The notes under the pieces: model-generated
Databases searched by the model: none
Told to the model about the DNA's origin: nothing
What the model saw: the letters and a program-made list of their open reading frames with translations, nothing else
Translations under genes and position numbers: made by a program
Part shown: positions 2,448-47,276 of the stretch, one piece after another
How the letters are laid out: each line of letters starts with the position of its first letter
Position numbering within the stretch: the first letter of the stretch is position 1
Origin: Escherichia phage vB_EcoM_G8
Length of the DNA: 64,000 nt
Reading direction: 5' to 3' (one strand)
Sequence record: NC_054915.1

Positions 2448-4267
2448 TATTGGCTCATCCATTCTTTACGAAGGTCAGCATTATCTCCCATGAGCATTTC
2501 AAAAAGCTCTTTCCAGTTCTCAGGAAGTTTAACAACATCATATACTGGGTTTTGAATCATCTCACGATATTCAGATTTTTCCAAAGAGCCAAGTCCCTTA
2601 ATATAACGGATGCTATGTTTAGGTAGAGCATCTTTAGCACTCTCATATTCAGCGACTGTATAAAACCATTCTTGTTTTTTACCGACCTGAGCGATGATTA
2701 CAGGAGTTTTGACAAAACGAATTCGTCCTTGCTCAAACAATTCTGGCCAATTACTAAAAAATCCGAGCAGAGAAGGATAAATGCTTCCTAGACCATCATG
2801 GTCAGCATCAGTCATAATAGCAATATTATGATAATTCAAGTTTTCAGCTTTTTCACCAAGAACTAATCCAGTGATTGCGCAAATATCAAATAGTTCTTTG
2901 TTTTTAAGCATATCAGCATATGACATACCCCAACTGTTGAGAACTTTACCACGTAATGGATAACCACCATGAAGTTCTTTATCACGAACATCAATAAGAT
3001 ATCCGATAGCCGAATCACCCTCAGTCAAGAAAAGAGTAGTGTCAGCATCTTTACCACAAAGATTCGCTTTGATATGTTTATGAACCTTAGCTTTAGAAGC
3101 CTTTTTAGCTGCTTTAGTTTCTGCTGCTTTTTCTGCCGCCAATTTACGAGCTAATGCTGCTTCAATAATCGGCATTAAAATTGCTTCATTATTCAAAATA
3201 GCACGTGAAATCTTTTTAGCATCAAGTTGAATATGACTACGGATTTCACCAAATGGAGAAGTCAAACGCTCTTTAGTTTGAGAATCAAATCGCATGTTTT
3301 TCATATCACGAACAAACATAACGATAGTCAAACATTCTTTAACGCGTGCTTTAGTTACATCAATTTTGAACTTGCGTTTGATTTGTGGAATAAGGTCTTC
3401 ACAAATATCATCCATAACACAGTCAATGTGATGGCCACCATTCTTAGTGTGAATGTTATTCACATAAGTTAATTGACGAAAACCGTCGGGTGAACGACCA
3501 ACCGCAATAGAACAATTTTCTTGTTCTTGAACGATAGCATGTTCATCATACTGTCGTGCATATTTCTTAAAATTGCCCTGAACCTTTTTACCATTAAAGG
3601 TAAATTGAATATCAGGATAAACAACAGCAAGTGTCTGGAGACGATCTAGTGTAATGTCAAGATAAACCTGGGACAGCTCATTAGTTTCAAATGACATAAA
3701 ATCAGGAATGAAAGTAACACGGGTTCCTTTCCATTTTCCAGGAATATCTTCCCATGATTTATTTTCCATGCCGTTTGAACAACGAACTACAATATTATTT
3801 TGACCATCGCCAGTTTCACCGACAAACATCACAGAAAAAATGTTTGTCAAACTAGAACCAACACCATTCATACCGCCGGTGACGCGTTCTTTATCATCAC
3901 CGAAGTTACCACCCGCTTTTGGAATAGTCCATGCAGCAACTGGACCAGGAATTTCTTCACCGGTAGGTGTTTTAACCATCGCTTGTGGAATACCACGACC
4001 GTTATCTTCAACTGTTACTTGATTGTTTTTAATAGTAACATTAATTTTATTTGCGAATTTAAACTTAGTACGAATACCTTCATCTACTGAGTTATCGATA
4101 ATTTCATCAATAAGCTTAACAAGACCAGGTACATACTGAACACTTTCCCATTTACCAAACAGAAAGCGCTCATGCATTTCATTAGCAGAAGAGCCAATGT
4201 ACATGCCGCTACGCTTTTTGATATGTTCAATATCGCTCAGAATTTTAATTTCATTCTTAATCATCAC
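2447..4267 (-). CDS. 39: DNA topoisomerase II large subunit, uninterrupted gp39 (GyrB-like ATPase + Toprim; includes the segment that is separate gene 60 in T4)
   Basis: 606-aa ORF; GHKL ATPase and Toprim motifs; C-terminal portion continuous with N-terminal portion; directly adjacent to rIIA.1 with no mobA/gene 60 between. Confidence 0.92.
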   Translation of the reverse strand: MMIKNEIKILSDIEHIKKRSGMYIGSSANEMHERFLFGKWESVQYVPGLVKLIDEIIDNSVDEGIRTKFKFANKINVTIKNNQVTVEDNGRGIPQAMVKTPTGEEIPGPVAAWTIPKAGGNFGDDKERVTGGMNGVGSSLTNIFSVMFVGETGDGQNNIVVRCSNGMENKSWEDIPGKWKGTRVTFIPDFMSFETNELSQVYLDITLDRLQTLAVVYPDIQFTFNGKKVQGNFKKYARQYDEHAIVQEQENCSIAVGRSPDGFRQLTYVNNIHTKNGGHHIDCVMDDICEDLIPQIKRKFKIDVTKARVKECLTIVMFVRDMKNMRFDSQTKERLTSPFGEIRSHIQLDAKKISRAILNNEAILMPIIEAALARKLAAEKAAETKAAKKASKAKVHKHIKANLCGKDADTTLFLTEGDSAIGYLIDVRDKELHGGYPLRGKVLNSWGMSYADMLKNKELFDICAITGLVLGEKAENLNYHNIAIMTDADHDGLGSIYPSLLGFFSNWPELFEQGRIRFVKTPVIIAQVGKKQEWFYTVAEYESAKDALPKHSIRYIKGLGSLEKSEYREMIQNPVYDVVKLPENWKELFEMLMGDNADLRKEWMSQ

Positions 4268-4316
4268 TTATCCTCGTTTGGTTTCGGGAATATTATACTC
4301 CAATAATCATAAAGCT

Positions 4317-4334
4317 AAAGGCCCGAAGGCCTTT
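4317..4334 (-). promoter_or_regulatory. C(UUCG)G tetraloop stem-loop (6-7 bp stem) between lipoprotein gene and gene 39
   Basis: plus strand aaggcc-cgaa-ggcctt; followed on minus strand by ttggagTATAAT -10-like element. Confidence 0.55.
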
Positions 4335-4603
4335 TATTTAAAACGAATAGTCGAATCCTTGAAGAATAGTCCAGAACATACTGTTCCTTCTACTTTCTGC
4401 CCAGTAGGTCCAATAGCACGAAATCCAGTATGCTGGAAATCATTTTCAGAGCAACCGAACCAATTATATCCAGTGATTTCAATATTAGTAAAACCACTTG
4501 AAGACAAAACTTTGGTTGCATTATCAGCATCAGTACATCCTATTAAAGACACTGCTAATACTAATGCTGCAATAGAACGATTAATATATTTCATAATTTT
4601 CAC
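4334..4603 (-). CDS. putative lipoprotein (signal peptide + lipobox LIGC)
   Basis: 89-aa ORF; N-terminal hydrophobic segment ending in LIGC. Confidence 0.6.
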   Translation of the reverse strand: MKIMKYINRSIAALVLAVSLIGCTDADNATKVLSSSGFTNIEITGYNWFGCSENDFQHTGFRAIGPTGQKVEGTVCSGLFFKDSTIRFK

Positions 4604-4977
4604 TTAAATTTAATGGCTTGAAGAAGACTAATAACTCTCAAGCGGCTTCTTTCATCTTTAACTGTAAAGGAAAGAGGGTCACCAGATTTCATAGTGATAG
4701 TGCATTCAAAATCAAAATCTTCAGGAACTTCTTCGAAGAAGTCAAATTCTTCATCATAAATTAGAACATTACTTTGAAAACTGTGAAGAATTTTTCCATC
4801 ATTTCCAGATGCTGTACTAATCATTGTAACATTATTACCTTTCATATCTTCAACGATAAATTCGCTTGTAGATATTACAGCATTAATAGAACCATTCCTA
4901 TAAATAGCAGACATTAGATATTTCTTTTCTTCGCCTTCGCGAATACGATACTTCTTACCGATTTTAAACATAATCAC
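4600..4977 (-). CDS. hypothetical protein
   Basis: 125-aa ORF, start/stop overlap with neighbours typical of T4 early operons. Confidence 0.5.
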   Translation of the reverse strand: MIMFKIGKKYRIREGEEKKYLMSAIYRNGSINAVISTSEFIVEDMKGNNVTMISTASGNDGKILHSFQSNVLIYDEEFDFFEEVPEDFDFECTITMKSGDPLSFTVKDERSRLRVISLLQAIKFK

Positions 4978-5150
4978 CCTTTAAGTAAGTCGTAAAAACC
5001 ACCATTCACATGCTTAGGAGCGGAAACTAACCGAATAGCAATCCGATGACAATCAGGACATACATCAGTATCCCTTTCAGAAATTTTCTTGATTTTTTCG
5101 TATTCTTTTGCGCAGTCTTTGGATTGACATTTATAATCATAAAGAGGCAT
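4974..5150 (-). CDS. FmdB-type zinc-ribbon small protein (58 aa), not in supplied ORF track
   Basis: hand translation MPLYDYKCQSKDCAKEYEKIKKISERDTDVCPDCH...; two CxxC pairs; coordinates approximate. Confidence 0.5.
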   Translation of the reverse strand: MPLYDYKCQSKDCAKEYEKIKKISERDTDVCPDCHRIAIRLVSAPKHVNGGFYDLLKG

Positions 5151-41378: not shown

Positions 41379-41849
41379 TTAATCATGTTTCCACACCCCA
41401 TCGGTATTTGACCAAAGTCGCTGATTATCTGATCCTCGCCACAGCTTTTTAGTCGGAAGATTTTTCTCATACTTCCCATCAATAATAACATCAACATATT
41501 TAAGCATTTCTAGTTGTTTAATATCTTCAAACTTATATCCTGCCCACAACCAAATGCTTTTATTGGGATAAAGATTTTTAATAGTTTGAACCACAGAGTG
41601 AATCACGTCTCTGTTATCAGGATAAAGAGGGTCACCTCCGGTTATAGTCAATCCTTCTATATAATCATTATTCAAACATTCAATTAATTGTTCTAGTGTT
41701 TCACCAGTGAATGGAATACCATTTCTAGCATTCCATGTTGATTTATTATAACACCCTTCACATTTATGCAAACAACCCGTAACGAAAAGAACGACCCTGC
41801 AACCAGGGCCATTCACAAAATCGCAAGGATAAAATCTATCGTAATTCAT
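41379..41849 (-). CDS. nrdG: anaerobic ribonucleotide reductase activating protein (radical SAM)
   Basis: 156-aa ORF; CxxxCxxC cluster in FVTGCLHKCEGCYN. Confidence 0.9.
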   Translation of the reverse strand: MNYDRFYPCDFVNGPGCRVVLFVTGCLHKCEGCYNKSTWNARNGIPFTGETLEQLIECLNNDYIEGLTITGGDPLYPDNRDVIHSVVQTIKNLYPNKSIWLWAGYKFEDIKQLEMLKYVDVIIDGKYEKNLPTKKLWRGSDNQRLWSNTDGVWKHD

Positions 41850-43119
41850 TGATGCTTAACCCTATGCATGATTTCTTTATTTTTACCGAGATTAAATCCG
41901 CGTTCGTTCGGGTTTCCAAGATATCCGCATGTTCTTCTTATTGTGTTCATCTTTTTAGGATCAGTTTCTCCACAAATAGAACAAACAAATCCGTTTTCAG
42001 TAGGAGTCATTTCATGGGTACTTCCGCATGTAAAACATTTATCTACCGGCATGTTAACACCAAAATAATCTAAATGTTGTGCAGCATAATCCCACACAGC
42101 CTCAAGACCTTTTAAGTTATTTTTCATATCAGGAAGTTCAACATAAGAAATGTGACCACCTGTCGCAATGAAATGATATGGCGCTTCACGAGAAATCTTT
42201 TCAAACGGAGTAATATTTTCTTCTACTGAAACATGGAAACTGTTAGTGTACCAGCCTTTATCGGTAACATCTTTTACACTTCCATATTTTTCTGTATCGA
42301 GTTTACAGAAGCGATAACAAAGGTTTTCAGCAGGAGTAGAATATAAACTAAAAGCAAATCCGGTTCTTTCAGTCCACTGTTTAAGATGAGCATTCATTTT
42401 AGTTAAAATTTCTCGTCCAATACCACGACCAACAAGAATATTCAATTCGTGAATACCTATGTATCCTAGGGACACTGAACTTCTACCGTTTTTAAATAAC
42501 TCAATTATATCGTCATCAGGTTTAAGACGAACCCCGAATGCACCTTCTTGGTAAAGAATAGGAGCAACAGTCGCTTTAACTCCTTTTAAGGAATTGATTC
42601 TACACATCAATGCTTCAAAACATAAATCCATTCGTTCATTGAACAATTCGGCAAATTTCTGTTCATTGAACTGTGTTCCAATATAAGAATCTAACGCAAT
42701 ACGAGGAAGATTCAATGTTACAACGCCAAGATTATTACGTCCATCAAGAATTTCATTACCAGTCGAATCTTTCCATACGCTCAAGAAACTACGGCAACCC
42801 ATTGGAGAAACAGGAATAGATGAACCAGTGATAGCTTTATTATTCTTAGCTGAAATAATATCAGGATACATTCTTTTGCTTGCACACTCTAGAGCAAGCT
42901 GCTTAATATCATAGTTCGGATCGTCTTTATAAAGATTAACACCTTCTTCAACGAACATAACAAGTTTAGGGAAAATAGGAGTTATCCCGTCACGACCAAG
43001 ACCTTTAATACGATTTTTCAGAATTGCTTTCTGAATCATTCGTTCAGTCCAGTCAGTTCCCGTACCAAATGTAATTGTTACAAAAGGTGTTTGCCCGTTT
43101 GAACTGAATAACGTGTTCA
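41846..43119 (-). CDS. nrdD: anaerobic ribonucleotide reductase NrdD, exon 2
   Basis: contains glycyl-radical motif RRTCGYLG and C-terminal Zn-ribbon cysteines; joined to exon 1 gives 605 aa. Confidence 0.88.
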
Positions 43120-43146
43120 CTTCATCAATGTGTTCAGTAGAGTTCG

Positions 43147-43923
43147 CTACTTCTCTACCCGTTTATATGAAACAATGTAATTTGGATAATTGTCATCTAA
43201 ACACAAATCTTTAATACGACTTGGGTGGAGTTTTAAATCTTTAGCAGCATCCACAAATGATTTATAGATATTGTCATTTATTTTAACATATTCTGGGACG
43301 GGATGAATTGTTATTTTTATATCTATAACATTTGGATGATTACTAACCTGTTCTTCAGAGCATTTAAGAAATTTTGCAGCTGATTTAAAACTTCTAAATT
43401 TATTTCCGGATTTTAAAGCTATAGAAACAGTCTTTTTAGCCGTTCTACTACCAATATTATTTTTAACATGAGCTTCACTTCTACTATTATTTTTATAATG
43501 CTCAATCAATTTCTCTCGTATCTTATCTTTATGTTTTAAAGATAAGATTTTACCTTTATGGGCATTACTAAGTTTTTGCTTATGTTCTTCTGAATCCGGA
43601 TATTTGTTAAATTTATATCCACCTATAGATTTATTAAGAATAAATTCGTTATTAAAATATTTCCTAATAAGCATTTCTTCATGTTTAAGGGCCGATTCAT
43701 AAGAATCAAAAACTTGAAGAATTATCCACTTAGCTTTATAATCTTTAAGCTTTTCTTTAACAAGCTTAGATGACGAATTGTATTCTTTCCAATTTGTATC
43801 TTTACCATATATAGTTTTGAATTTTTTAAAACCTATATAAAAAGACTTATCAGGAAATCTTACCATATAGGTAAATGCTACAGAATTGGCAAGTTTTAAG
43901 CTTTTTCTTAATTTCCATTTCAT
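43147..43923 (-). CDS. intron-encoded GIY-YIG homing endonuclease (I-TevII-like)
   Basis: 258-aa ORF inside intron; GIY-YIG-like FTYMV...FYIG N-terminus; length equals I-TevII. Confidence 0.8.
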   Translation of the reverse strand: MKWKLRKSLKLANSVAFTYMVRFPDKSFYIGFKKFKTIYGKDTNWKEYNSSSKLVKEKLKDYKAKWIILQVFDSYESALKHEEMLIRKYFNNEFILNKSIGGYKFNKYPDSEEHKQKLSNAHKGKILSLKHKDKIREKLIEHYKNNSRSEAHVKNNIGSRTAKKTVSIALKSGNKFRSFKSAAKFLKCSEEQVSNHPNVIDIKITIHPVPEYVKINDNIYKSFVDAAKDLKLHPSRIKDLCLDDNYPNYIVSYKRVEK

Positions 43924-43930
43924 CGTTTCA

Positions 43931-43955
43931 CCTCGTATTCATATTTATACGAGGA
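43931..43955 (-). promoter_or_regulatory. late promoter TATAAATA inside an 8-bp hairpin that would sequester the I-TevII RBS in read-through transcripts
   Basis: plus strand cctcgtat-tcatattta-atacgagg; tatttata at about 43942-43949. Confidence 0.65.
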
Positions 43956-44152
43956 TAAACAGCTGCATGTCACCATGCAGTTCAGACTATATCTTCAACT
44001 CTTAGAGTTGTCTGCCGTTTCGGGTCGCTTGACCCTACTCCCTTACATTCATCAGGGATAGTCGTTGGGCATTTACAGCTACTGCTGATTTAGCAACGGA
44101 TTGTCTCAGTGAGAGTTTCCCGTTTTAGGCAGATTTTACATGAGCTTGACTT

Positions 44153-44696
44153 ACGTTAACTCATAAGCTTGGAATGCATCGTATACGTCTTTTTCTGTTT
44201 TAGATTGAGCATAATTCAACGCATCAGCGATTTGCCATTTTTCTGCATCCTCAATATGTTTTGCATAGGTGCGTTTAACATAAGGAGAAAGTACTTTATC
44301 TACATTCGCAAATGTAGTTCCGCCATACTGGTGTGAAGCAACTTGTGCAGTAATTTGTGCCATAATTGCAGTAGCAACACCAATCGATTTAGGCGTTTCA
44401 ATTTGAGCATTGCCTAATTTAAATCCGTTCTCAAGCATCCCCTTTAAATCGACTAAACAGCAATTAGTAAAAGGCAATGATATACTGTAATCTAAATCAT
44501 GAAAATGAATTAATCCAACATTATGGGCATTTACAATATGACTTGGAAGAATACGACAAGCGATATGTTTAGAAACAATACCGGCCATTAAATCTCTTTT
44601 TGTTGGAAAGACGCGAGAATCTTTGTTGGCGTTTTCTGTATTTAATTCTTTATCTTTATTTGAAATAAAATTTAAAACATCTTTTTCTAAAGACAT
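44153..44696 (-). CDS. nrdD: anaerobic ribonucleotide reductase NrdD, exon 1
   Basis: 181 codons from MSLEKDVLNF... to ...AYELT before the inferred 5' splice site. Confidence 0.85.
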
Positions 44697-45508
44697 AATT
44701 CTAATTTATCCTTTTGAAATTCTTCGTCTAAATATGGGTTCCAACCCATTTTAAACCTTTTGATGAAATTATCAATTCTAAATTTCGGTAAGTTTAAATC
44801 CACAAAAATAGATGATTTACTTTTAAAATCTGGACTTAAATAATCATATAAAATTTCTGCGTATTTTAACCATAATATACAAGTACCAGATTTAATTGCT
44901 CTCGGAGTTTTCCAAGGTTTTACACCATACATCGGATTTCCACTTCCTTTATGCCTGATAGAAGATGAAATTCCAATTTTAATTTTAGCTTCCTTTGTAT
45001 GCGAAAATCCACGATGTGGATTTTCTTTCCAGTATTTTTTAGAAGCTTCTGATATTTTCTTTCTGGCTAAATTAGTATGATGCTTTCCATAAAATCCATG
45101 ATTTTTGCCTTTATTACGATTTCTTTTAATCATGGTTATTGATTGCTTTTCTCTAGTTTCTTTAGAAGGAGAAACACCGTACGTTGTAAATTGACCATCA
45201 GCATATGCTAAATTAAAATACTCTTTATTCCATATATCTTTTTCTATATTCTTTTGAAATTCAGCTTCAATGCTAGTTATTTGCTCATCTCCGACTAATT
45301 GAAAATATAATATTTCAACTTTCGGCGTTTCTTTCAACAGGGCTTTTTGAAATTCGGAAGATGACGAAGACGAATAATAAAATTTACCATTTTTATCAAT
45401 AATATTCGTTCCGTCAAAAGTGCAATTAGTTTTACTTCCAATGTAATAATATGGCGGGGTTTTAGCATTAATTCTATTAATAAATGATAGTTTATATACT
45501 ACATTCAT
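44687..45508 (-). CDS. Seg-like GIY-YIG homing endonuclease with NUMOD3-like motifs
   Basis: 273-aa ORF; VYKLSFINRINAKTPPYYYIGSKT GIY-YIG module; overlaps gene 49 start side and nrdD start. Confidence 0.75.
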   Translation of the reverse strand: MNVVYKLSFINRINAKTPPYYYIGSKTNCTFDGTNIIDKNGKFYYSSSSSSEFQKALLKETPKVEILYFQLVGDEQITSIEAEFQKNIEKDIWNKEYFNLAYADGQFTTYGVSPSKETREKQSITMIKRNRNKGKNHGFYGKHHTNLARKKISEASKKYWKENPHRGFSHTKEAKIKIGISSSIRHKGSGNPMYGVKPWKTPRAIKSGTCILWLKYAEILYDYLSPDFKSKSSIFVDLNLPKFRIDNFIKRFKMGWNPYLDEEFQKDKLELCL

Positions 45509-45978
45509 TTTAAACTCTTTCTAAGCTGCTTCTTGAATGAAGCTATTAATTGTGTTTTGGTGTCAGATTCATTATATTCAAATCCTCTTTGAAGCATCTC
45601 GGCCATCATTTCCTCTTTTCCTAAACGAGAAAATTCCTTTGATTTATCTCCAACGAAGTTAGGGTGAATATTATTTTGGGTGTAATCGGATTTTAAATAA
45701 GTAAGTAAATTTTCTAACCATTCAAGATAATCAACACCTTGCCCCTTTAAGCCAGAACGATTAAATTTATGTTTCATTTGACCTTCTGCGGCATTGCAGA
45801 GATTACAAAGCAATCCACGTACCTTTCCTGCTTTTGGTCCATTTAATTCATGGTCATGGTCGAGGTGATTAGCTTGAACATCAGGATTTAGTTCTCGTTG
45901 GCAAATTAAGCATTTACCATTTTGTGCATCATAAAATTTCTGTTTTTCTTCTTTATATAATTTGCCAGTCAATAACAT
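45505..45978 (-). CDS. 49: endonuclease VII (Holliday junction resolvase) gp49
   Basis: 157-aa ORF; zinc-binding CxxC..HLDHDH..CNLCN; T4 gp49 length. Confidence 0.9.
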   Translation of the reverse strand: MLLTGKLYKEEKQKFYDAQNGKCLICQRELNPDVQANHLDHDHELNGPKAGKVRGLLCNLCNAAEGQMKHKFNRSGLKGQGVDYLEWLENLLTYLKSDYTQNNIHPNFVGDKSKEFSRLGKEEMMAEMLQRGFEYNESDTKTQLIASFKKQLRKSLK

Positions 45979-46019
45979 AATAAACCCTTACCTTAAATAG
46001 ATAAGGGTATTTATTATTT

Positions 46020-46523
46020 TCAAGTATTGTAAAACATTTGATTCAATCGCTTATATTGCCGAATCTTTTGGTCAGAAAAAGAAATTTGAGTTTCAAGCCA
46101 TTCAATATATTCTGCCGCAGCTTGCATCAAATTTCCTTCATAGCCATCGTTATTTTCTTGTGCAGCTAATTTAGCTAATGCGTATGAAATACGTTCACCT
46201 TGAAAATCGGCTTTAGGTTTATGAATAGCTTGATCAACTCGTTCTACAACTTCTTCAATTTCGCCATTTTCGACTGATTCAGTATTCCACAAACACCAAT
46301 ACGTAATTAGCTTATCGTAGATGTTAATAATCTTTCCATCAGAAAGTTCAATTTCAATAATTCCAGTATCAGGTTCTATATCATCTTCACATTCTTTTAC
46401 AAGTTCACGAACTTTAAAGACAGTACCTGCACTAAGTTCCGGCCAGTAATTACATAGCTCTTTATCAGCACGATTAATTCTAAACCACTTATCTACTGTA
46501 ATCATGTCCCATCTCCATATCAA
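46020..46523 (-). CDS. hypothetical protein (possibly pin-like by position)
   Basis: 167-aa ORF. Confidence 0.5.
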   Translation of the reverse strand: MIWRWDMITVDKWFRINRADKELCNYWPELSAGTVFKVRELVKECEDDIEPDTGIIEIELSDGKIINIYDKLITYWCLWNTESVENGEIEEVVERVDQAIHKPKADFQGERISYALAKLAAQENNDGYEGNLMQAAAEYIEWLETQISFSDQKIRQYKRLNQMFYNT

Positions 46524-46627
46524 TTAAGTCATTTATCGTTGGTTCATTATATACTGTTTCTTCATCAGTGTAAACCGGTTCTTCCGGCTCTGGCTCTACA
46601 GTTTCCCATCTAGCCGCCCACCAAGGT

Positions 46628-46837
46628 TTAACCCCGAAGCTTATTAAGTTCTTCATAATCAATCCAGGATTCTAATCCTGATGGCAAATCAGATTCAATT
46701 TCCCAAAGAAGTTCTTCAATTTTATGAAGACGATCTAGTTCTTCAGCAGGAATAGTAACCACTGACGGAGCTCTTGCTACATTAATATCGTAAATCATAT
46801 TTACCCCAGTTTGACCATACAATCGCCGTATTTCCAC
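46628..46837 (-). CDS. hypothetical small protein
   Basis: 69-aa ORF. Confidence 0.45.
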   Translation of the reverse strand: MEIRRLYGQTGVNMIYDINVARAPSVVTIPAEELDRLHKIEELLWEIESDLPSGLESWIDYEELNKLRG

Positions 46838-47016
46838 TTAGAAATAGACTTTTCACCATTAGAATAATAAACTTCAAGTTTAGCACGATTATTTTTAATT
46901 TGAATAACCTTTGCTGTCATCAAAGTTCCATACCCATAATAAACTGCAACTTCATCACCTACATATACCGCGCTTCCGCGGTAGTCATGGATATAATCAG
47001 TTCCTTCAAGCATCAT
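46801..47016 (-). CDS. hypothetical small protein
   Basis: 71-aa ORF. Confidence 0.5.
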   Translation of the reverse strand: MMLEGTDYIHDYRGSAVYVGDEVAVYYGYGTLMTAKVIQIKNNRAKLEVYYSNGEKSISKWKYGDCMVKLG

Positions 47017-47276
47017 TTAAAGTATTCCCGCAATTGGTCAAATCCACCAATATGACTTCCATCAGGAGCAAATACCTGAGGCATTGTTAAGCCGATTTGA
47101 GTATCACGACCTAGTTTAGTCAGAAGCTCAGCAATTTTCTCATCATCAAAAACACCTTTTTCCGGCATAATGTTGATAAATTCAAACGGTTGTTTCTTCA
47201 CTGTCAAAAGACGTTTTGCATTATCGCAATACACGCATTTGTGGATGTTGCTATCATAACCATATACTTTAAACAT
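47013..47276 (-). CDS. nrdC: thioredoxin NrdC
   Basis: 87-aa ORF MFKVYGYDSNIHKCVYCDNAKRLL... matching remembered T4 thioredoxin. Confidence 0.95.
   Translation of the reverse strand: MFKVYGYDSNIHKCVYCDNAKRLLTVKKQPFEFINIMPEKGVFDDEKIAELLTKLGRDTQIGLTMPQVFAPDGSHIGGFDQLREYFK

Follow-up and report, generated by a model that had tools for sequence, protein, structure and literature searches.

A free-standing GIY-YIG homing endonuclease gene between gene 49 and nrdD of T-even phages and the nrdD 5' allele linked to it

In Escherichia phage vB_EcoM_G8 a Seg-like gene lies between gene 49 and nrdD, and its product is probably an active, or recently active, Seg-type homing endonuclease that cuts T4-type nrdD within the first ~250 nt, a presumably resistant nrdD allele being co-converted with it. 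The gene was analysed in a 64,000-nt window of this genome (NC_054915.1), a genome segment of a T4-like phage (Tequatrovirus), and is an uncharacterised member of the known T-even Seg class. It already bears the generic annotation "homing endonuclease" in about 48 public genomes, and no publication describing an endonuclease at the 49/nrdD position turned up in literature searches. How homing endonucleases are understood in general does not change with this analysis; new here are a linked nrdD allele of 231 nt, the spread of the gene across genera, a series of decay products and the prediction of a target in T4-type nrdD (nt ~165-255).

The first-pass annotation had described a 273-aa ORF wedged between gene 49 and nrdD and overlapping both neighbours by a few nucleotides. 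This arrangement was confirmed on the minus strand of the window (Table 1): the ORF starts in an ATGA overlap with the gene 49 stop codon, and its last 10 nt overlap the start of nrdD. GenBank has the encoded protein, at 100% identity, as QBQ79965.1, 'homing endonuclease [Escherichia phage vB_EcoM_G8]'. At the nucleotide level gene 49 matches its T4 counterpart by 98-100% up to the stop codon, where the insertion lies, and the first exon of nrdD (from 44696) matches PF13597 in Pfam. The statement that gene 49 stands next to nrdD in T4 proved right as well. In T4 (AF158101.6) nothing separates the two genes, the stop codon of gene 49 and the start codon of nrdD sharing an ATGA; the genes abut directly in most relatives, and the same direct overlap occurs in many other T4-like genera. 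Since the ATG of the endonuclease gene occupies the position of the nrdD ATG in T4, its translation is likely to be coupled to that of gene 49 through the ATGA overlap. The translation start region of nrdD, including a candidate AAGGA (44709-44713), lies inside the endonuclease gene; a distant homologue described below has a like layout, with AAGGA 6 nt before the nrdD ATG.

Table 1. Features of the gene 49/nrdD region of vB_EcoM_G8 (positions in the window).
Feature	Position	Strand	Basis
Gene 49 (endonuclease VII), upstream neighbour	45505..45978	-	Pfam PF02945 and PF09124; identity profile against T4
ATGA overlap of gene 49 stop and endonuclease start	45505..45508	-	Sequence
Free-standing homing endonuclease gene, 273 codons plus stop	44687..45508	-	ORF; protein match to QBQ79965.1
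GIY-YIG nuclease domain, residues 1-105; conserved Y5, Y22, G24, E81, N99	45194..45508	-	
NUMOD3 motif, residues 130-153	45050..45121	-	Pfam PF07460, E 5.5e-8, above cut-off; profile match to 1i3j
C-terminal region, residues ~195-273, presumed target-specific DNA-binding domain	44690..44926	-	Alignment; low pLDDT; genomic context of P0018
10-nt overlap of endonuclease 3' end and nrdD start codon	44687..44696	-	Sequence
Endonuclease-linked nrdD 5' allele, nrdD nt 1-231, codons 1-77	44466..44696	-	Site comparison; tract search
Remainder of nrdD exon 1, mosaic	44159..44465	-	Mosigvirus-like to ~44380; 100% T4-identical from ~44320
nrdD group I intron, 1033 nt, with I-TevII (43147-43923)	43126..44158	-	100% identical to T4
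nrdD exon 2	41846..43125	-	

No dedicated T4 late promoter (TATAAATA) was found near the gene, the nearest TATAAATA motif (43942-43949) being that of I-TevII. Twelve sigma-70-like sites were counted in 44400-46200, against 9.7 +/- 2.8 in shuffled sequence; this is no excess over chance, so no promoter is claimed. The 'promoter' annotated at the 49/endonuclease boundary in phage Lutter is an unverified prediction. Many T-even free-standing endonuclease genes are promoter-less and overlap the upstream ORF (PMC2988022), and the present gene may likewise be a promoter-less cassette that is co-transcribed with gene 49. The last ~100 nt of gene 49 (window 45505-45600) are 93-100% identical across genera and the remainder of the gene 65-84%, both with and without the endonuclease; this conserved end is possibly a translation start region for the next gene, or else a recombination hot spot.

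The proposed Seg-like character of the protein and its GIY-YIG module are borne out by the SegG match, the conserved motif residues, the I-TevI profile match and the fold model. BLASTP against T4 SegG gave 40% identity over residues 1-126 (E 5e-27) and no similarity past residue 126, and residues 1-125 fall in a "homing endonuclease" family of PHROGs (E 4e-34). Pfam and NCBIfam made no GIY-YIG domain call; their matches were NUMOD3 and a sub-threshold TIGR01453. Conservation among 28 aligned homologues is complete at N99 and 90% or more at Y5, Y22, G24 and E81. These residues are the tyrosines of the GIY and YIG motifs, which read VVY5K ... YY22IG24, the glycine, the metal-binding glutamate and the structural asparagine. 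The profile built from this alignment matches the catalytic domain of I-TevI (1ln0, E 0.004), with E81 and N99 aligned to the ERENF and YNIA segments (E75 and N90 in I-TevI), and also its DNA-binding domain (1i3j, E 2e-5). The AlphaFold model has a pLDDT of ~95 over residues 1-105 and is poor after residue ~180; strands 2-8, 21-26 and 63-70, modelled at pLDDT ~95, make up a three-stranded sheet. The confident part of the model matches I-TevI and resembles the solved GIY-YIG domains, ~21% of the structurally aligned residues being identical between I-TevI and the endonuclease; a Foldseek search returned no significant match. No arginine equivalent to R27 of I-TevI was found in residues 25-50. 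It is absent from the whole SegG-like sub-family, including T4 SegG, which is listed as an active endonuclease (PMC2988022, Table 1), and K26 may take the place of the R27-type arginine.

The NUMOD3-like repeats noticed at the first reading were recovered by Pfam as one motif (33.0 bits, cut-off 20.4), which belongs to a helical linker and DNA-binding region of residues ~115-200. The C-terminal region, whose structure is poorly predicted, is presumed to be the domain that binds the specific target. The C-terminal end motif GWNPYLDEEFQKDK is common to P0016 and P0018, the latter located in the SegG slot.

T4 SegG (gene 32.1), a free-standing GIY-YIG homing endonuclease that lies between genes 59 and 32 and cuts gene 32, is the closest characterised relative, and the 49/nrdD endonuclease is by sequence comparison a paralogue of it. 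Besides the nuclease domain, both proteins have the YIGSK..NC..F and Y.SS motifs and lack an R27-type arginine; both are free-standing, located upstream of the (presumed) target gene and encoded by an ORF that holds the expression signals of the downstream gene (PMC2988022). The C-terminal GWNPxLDxEFQK motif is shared with some SegG-slot proteins, such as P0018. In contrast to T4 SegG, the protein occupies the slot 49/nrdD instead of 59/32, is 63 residues longer, contains NUMOD3 repeats and has another C-terminal region. Orthology with SegG was rejected, because the locus differs and the similarity is limited to the N-terminal part of the protein, and the 'SegG' label given to the gene in phage JK42 is for these reasons a misnomer. 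A further 273-aa protein (L057 4001-4822), encoded in another T4-like contig with gene 5 on one side and a 5.1-like gene on the other, combines the same nuclease domain (56% identity, N-terminal half) with a different C-terminal half, which suggests domain shuffling among Seg genes.

Comparison of the 49-nrdD junction across T4-like genomes, the check that the first-pass annotation had suggested, revealed that the insert is sporadic. A 2.3-kb region around the gene matched 696 phage records, and endonuclease DNA, 97-99% identical in each, was present in 48 of these ~696 records with the locus. The observation named beforehand as counter-evidence, the same ORF at this position in all relatives including T4, is not what was found, because the gene is sporadic and absent from T4. 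This sporadic presence and the location of the gene outside any intron or intein support the proposal of a free-standing homing endonuclease inserted between conserved genes. At the protein level a gap separates the copies (at least 92% identical) from all other proteins (below 60%), and in a collection of 5.8 billion proteins the family has 82 members in a single tight cluster, with a few distant relatives outside it.

Carriers were found in two genera and include vB_EcoM_G8, fPS-2, PTE-Eco15 and Lutter in Tequatrovirus and 348Ecol098PP, JK42, AV109, ST0 and JM17 in Mosigvirus. Gene 49 is ~81% identical between the two genera, whereas the endonuclease gene is 97-98% identical (range 97-99%), and the relationships among the copies cross genus lines: the copy of fPS-2 differs at 9 sites from that of the Mosigvirus 348Ecol098PP and at 11 from that of the Tequatrovirus PTE-Eco15. 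Such near-identity across genera, in copies that do not follow the genus, is a signature of recent horizontal spread, and the gene thus appears to have moved independently of the phage backbone. Nine copies from different phages were all intact; third codon positions account for 27 of the 42 variable sites among them, and pairwise dN/dS values range from 0.05 to 0.47 (mostly 0.1-0.2). This pattern shows purifying selection and speaks for a retained function.

The gene travels with a distinctive 5' end of nrdD. In the window the first ~380 nt of nrdD are 53-83% identical to T4, and from ~44320 through the whole intron the identity is 100%. All carriers, in both genera, have one haplotype over nrdD nt 1-231. 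Its distance from the T4 type amounts to 86 of 231 nt and 29 of 77 aa (37% and 38%, respectively), against 13 of 240 nt between the non-carriers of Tequatrovirus and Mosigvirus in the same stretch. Divergence is greatest at nt 119-218, not at the junction, and the 3' end of gene 49 is alike in carriers and non-carriers. Right after nt 231 the carriers become mosaic, with switches to host-type sequence at varied points from nt ~231 to ~320 that cluster at nt 231-255. When the tract of nt 1-231 was searched for on its own, exactly 48 records were retrieved, namely the 47 gene carriers and phage OLB35, the sole record with the linked allele that lacks the gene. A synthetic "endonuclease-deleted" junction found no match above 88% identity among non-carriers. 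The possibility that the tract is native Mosigvirus sequence was rejected, because Mosigviruses without the gene (L014 and L015) have the T4-type allele. We presume that the linked allele is a cleavage-resistant version of the target region. The invariant tract could persist because it is too divergent for internal recombination, in which case its right edge need not mark the cut.

Decay products of the gene were also recovered. In the Mosigvirus OLB35 (MH992122.1; L047 1830-1877) the gene is deleted and its first 22 nt are kept as the new 5' end of nrdD, the NrdD protein beginning with MNVVYKL (endonuclease codons 1-7), after which the frame continues at codon ~9 of the linked nrdD allele. 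The sequence of this junction is that of a deletion scar, in the single such record of the collection, flagged UNVERIFIED in GenBank. In a second Mosigvirus, FL18 (PP400780.1; L063 1937-2605), endonuclease codons 1-202 run in frame into the final ~18 codons of nrdD, and as a result of this ~2-kb deletion nrdD is absent from FL18. The most distant case is a metagenomic contig of a more remote T4-like phage (L059, Logan SRR27536177, 2188-3180), in which the order is gp49, a native nrdD 5' remnant of 55 codons, a frameshifted homologue 55-66% identical to the endonuclease, and a complete nrdD. The left junction of this cassette lies inside nrdD, at nt ~165. The 5' end of the complete nrdD shares "ELNTENANKD..VFPTKRD" with the allele of the window, unlike the native remnant of the same contig, and from codon 77 on it is 97-100% identical to nrdD of a relative, L035. 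Since this distant homologue also has a private nrdD 5' end, the pairing of the endonuclease with such an end is old. The relative L035 (IMGVR_UViG_2706796082_000001, ~4202-5105) has an in-frame insert of ~300 aa in its own NrdD, at PFTN|CC (codon 78/79, nrdD nt 234). This insert has Cys as its first residue, GN at its end and a LAGLIDADG-like motif, and it matches the Pfam intein splicing domain weakly (E 2e-4, below cut-off).

These records document the life cycle of a homing endonuclease at one locus with unusual completeness. They range from the empty site of T4 and the invaded site in two genera to a clean deletion scar in OLB35, the loss of nrdD by a large deletion in FL18 and, in L059, a frameshifted relic accompanied by a duplicated remnant of the target gene.

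The site at which a free-standing T-even endonuclease cuts lies in a neighbouring gene, hundreds of bp away from where the endonuclease gene is inserted, and when the break is repaired from the carrier genome the whole stretch from the cut to the endonuclease gene is co-converted (PMC2988022). In the mechanism that we propose for the 49/nrdD gene, during mixed infection with a gene-less phage the protein would make a double-strand break in T4-type nrdD, within the first ~250 nt, and the genome with the endonuclease gene would serve as template for its repair. Homology for this repair would come from the 3' end of gene 49 and, on the opposite side, from nrdD past nt ~231, and the recipient would gain both the endonuclease gene and the nrdD 5' segment that belongs to it, which is presumably uncleavable. 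Given that the gene 49 side is alike in carriers and non-carriers, the differing site should lie in nrdD nt 1-231 or at the junction, and nrdD itself, rather than the intergenic junction, is the likely target. The end of the L059 remnant at nt ~165, together with the host-type switches at nt 231-255, points to a cut at nt ~165-255, most plausibly beside the conserved block that codes for PFTNCC. C79 of this block is an active-site cysteine of T4 NrdD. Because a tract that is 37% divergent would be passed on in one piece whatever the location of the cut, the cut position is proposed with moderate strength. The 10-nt repeat GTTTAAAATG, which occurs at the gene 49 end and in the endonuclease 3' region, was considered as an insertion scar and rejected, since it is not conserved in L059.

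Three other explanations were weighed against this mechanism. According to one of them, the gene once encoded a homing endonuclease but has lost its cutting activity, is kept for the nrdD start embedded in it and spreads only by ordinary homologous recombination between co-infecting T-even phages. The nrdD ATG and its candidate ribosome-binding site do lie inside the endonuclease gene, although this embedding accounts for the last ~30 nt and not for low dN/dS over 273 codons, and OLB35 shows that a clean deletion is viable. The missing equivalent of I-TevI R27 would agree with a loss of cutting, against which stands the conservation of the catalytic Tyr, Tyr, Glu and Asn. As the flanks are alike from genus to genus (96-100% identity over the last ~100 nt of gene 49 and 93-98% in nrdD past nt 231), general recombination could move the gene, but passive recombination leaves unexplained why the allele and the intact gene remain linked without a break in 47 records. 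We consider this explanation unlikely.

It also seems to us quite improbable that the endonuclease, while active, recognises, in the manner of intron-encoded enzymes, a site across the intact 49/nrdD junction that is destroyed by the insertion, the divergent nrdD tract being a leftover of the donor lineage. The characterised T-even enzymes of the free-standing kind cut away from their own position, inside the adjacent gene (PMC2988022). The endonuclease ATG is placed exactly at the position of the T4 nrdD ATG and the junction sequence is conserved across genera, both in keeping with a junction site; the native nrdD remnant of L059, however, runs to codon 55, past the junction, and the divergence peaks well inside nrdD instead of at the junction. 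The highly divergent tract would be co-inherited whatever the cut position and so fits a junction site too. Finally, the possibility that the ORF arose by chance in AT-rich DNA or is an artefact of annotation, for which it could be said that Pfam gives a short NUMOD3 motif only, is refuted by the homology to SegG, the selection pattern and the fold match. The frame is intact and conserved in dozens of genomes, its substitutions are biased to third positions and its confident model matches I-TevI, so that the probability of this reading is close to nil.

The preferred reading, a Seg-type endonuclease directed against the 5' part of T4-type nrdD, can be carried further, to a more speculative form that we regard as rather doubtful. 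The element would then be a two-part mobile cassette, made up of the endonuclease and a replacement nrdD 5' end (codons 1-77) that have long co-evolved and together invade the nrdD coding region, with the cut at the active-site PFTNC79C block, the same spot as the intein-like insert of L035 (nt 234). If this were true, selfish elements with no relation to each other would have come, by convergence, to use the same spot of class III ribonucleotide reductase.

Intronless homing of the SegF, SegE and MobE type offers a close parallel to the 49/nrdD endonuclease: in both cases the gene is sporadic, lies between conserved genes, overlaps the upstream ORF and is linked to a variant allele of the neighbouring gene (PMC2988022). 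The linked tract described here differs from those in being unusually divergent and invariant across two genera. I-TevI, the endonuclease of the td intron, is unlike the 49/nrdD protein in being intron-encoded and in cutting within 25 bp of its insertion site. The SegH/mobC slot between nrdD and nrdG and I-TevII in the nrdD intron are comparable in that homing endonucleases parasitise nrdD at both, and nrdD of vB_EcoM_G8 thus has, in its group I intron with I-TevII, another homing element that is independent of the first. Beyond similarity at the level of NUMOD3 the 49/nrdD protein is unrelated to I-TevII (BLASTP E ~1) and to the endonuclease in the nrdD/nrdG slot of fPS-2 and FL18 (E 0.019 with that of FL18), and its own slot is a different one. 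Phage fPS-2 has all three, that is, the 49/nrdD endonuclease, I-TevII and an endonuclease in the mobC/SegH slot. In these phages nrdD is open to attack from three sides. For phage engineering and therapy cocktails it matters that such genes bias the inheritance of neighbouring markers in mixed infections.

Several minor observations were made in the same region. In vB_EcoM_G8 the nrdD stop and the nrdG start overlap directly as ATGA (window 41846-41849), and the mobC/SegH slot is therefore empty, while T4 has mobC there; GIY-YIG endonucleases occupy this slot in fPS-2 (L002 1124-1858) and FL18 (L063 1114-1944). The stretch 43120-44320 of the window, which covers the last part of nrdD exon 1 and the 1033-nt intron with its I-TevII gene, is 100% identical to T4 between flanks of 95-98%, and looks like a recent co-conversion tract of intron homing; directly next to it lies the tract that is linked to the 49/nrdD endonuclease. 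The small genes downstream of pin (T4 49.1-49.3 region, window 46600-47020) are unalignable with T4, with flanks 95-100% identical, and appear to form a replaced hypervariable block. In phage UPWr_E4 (PP418987.1; L048 1874-3042), gene 49 is present upstream of nrdD in two tandem copies with a small ORF between them.
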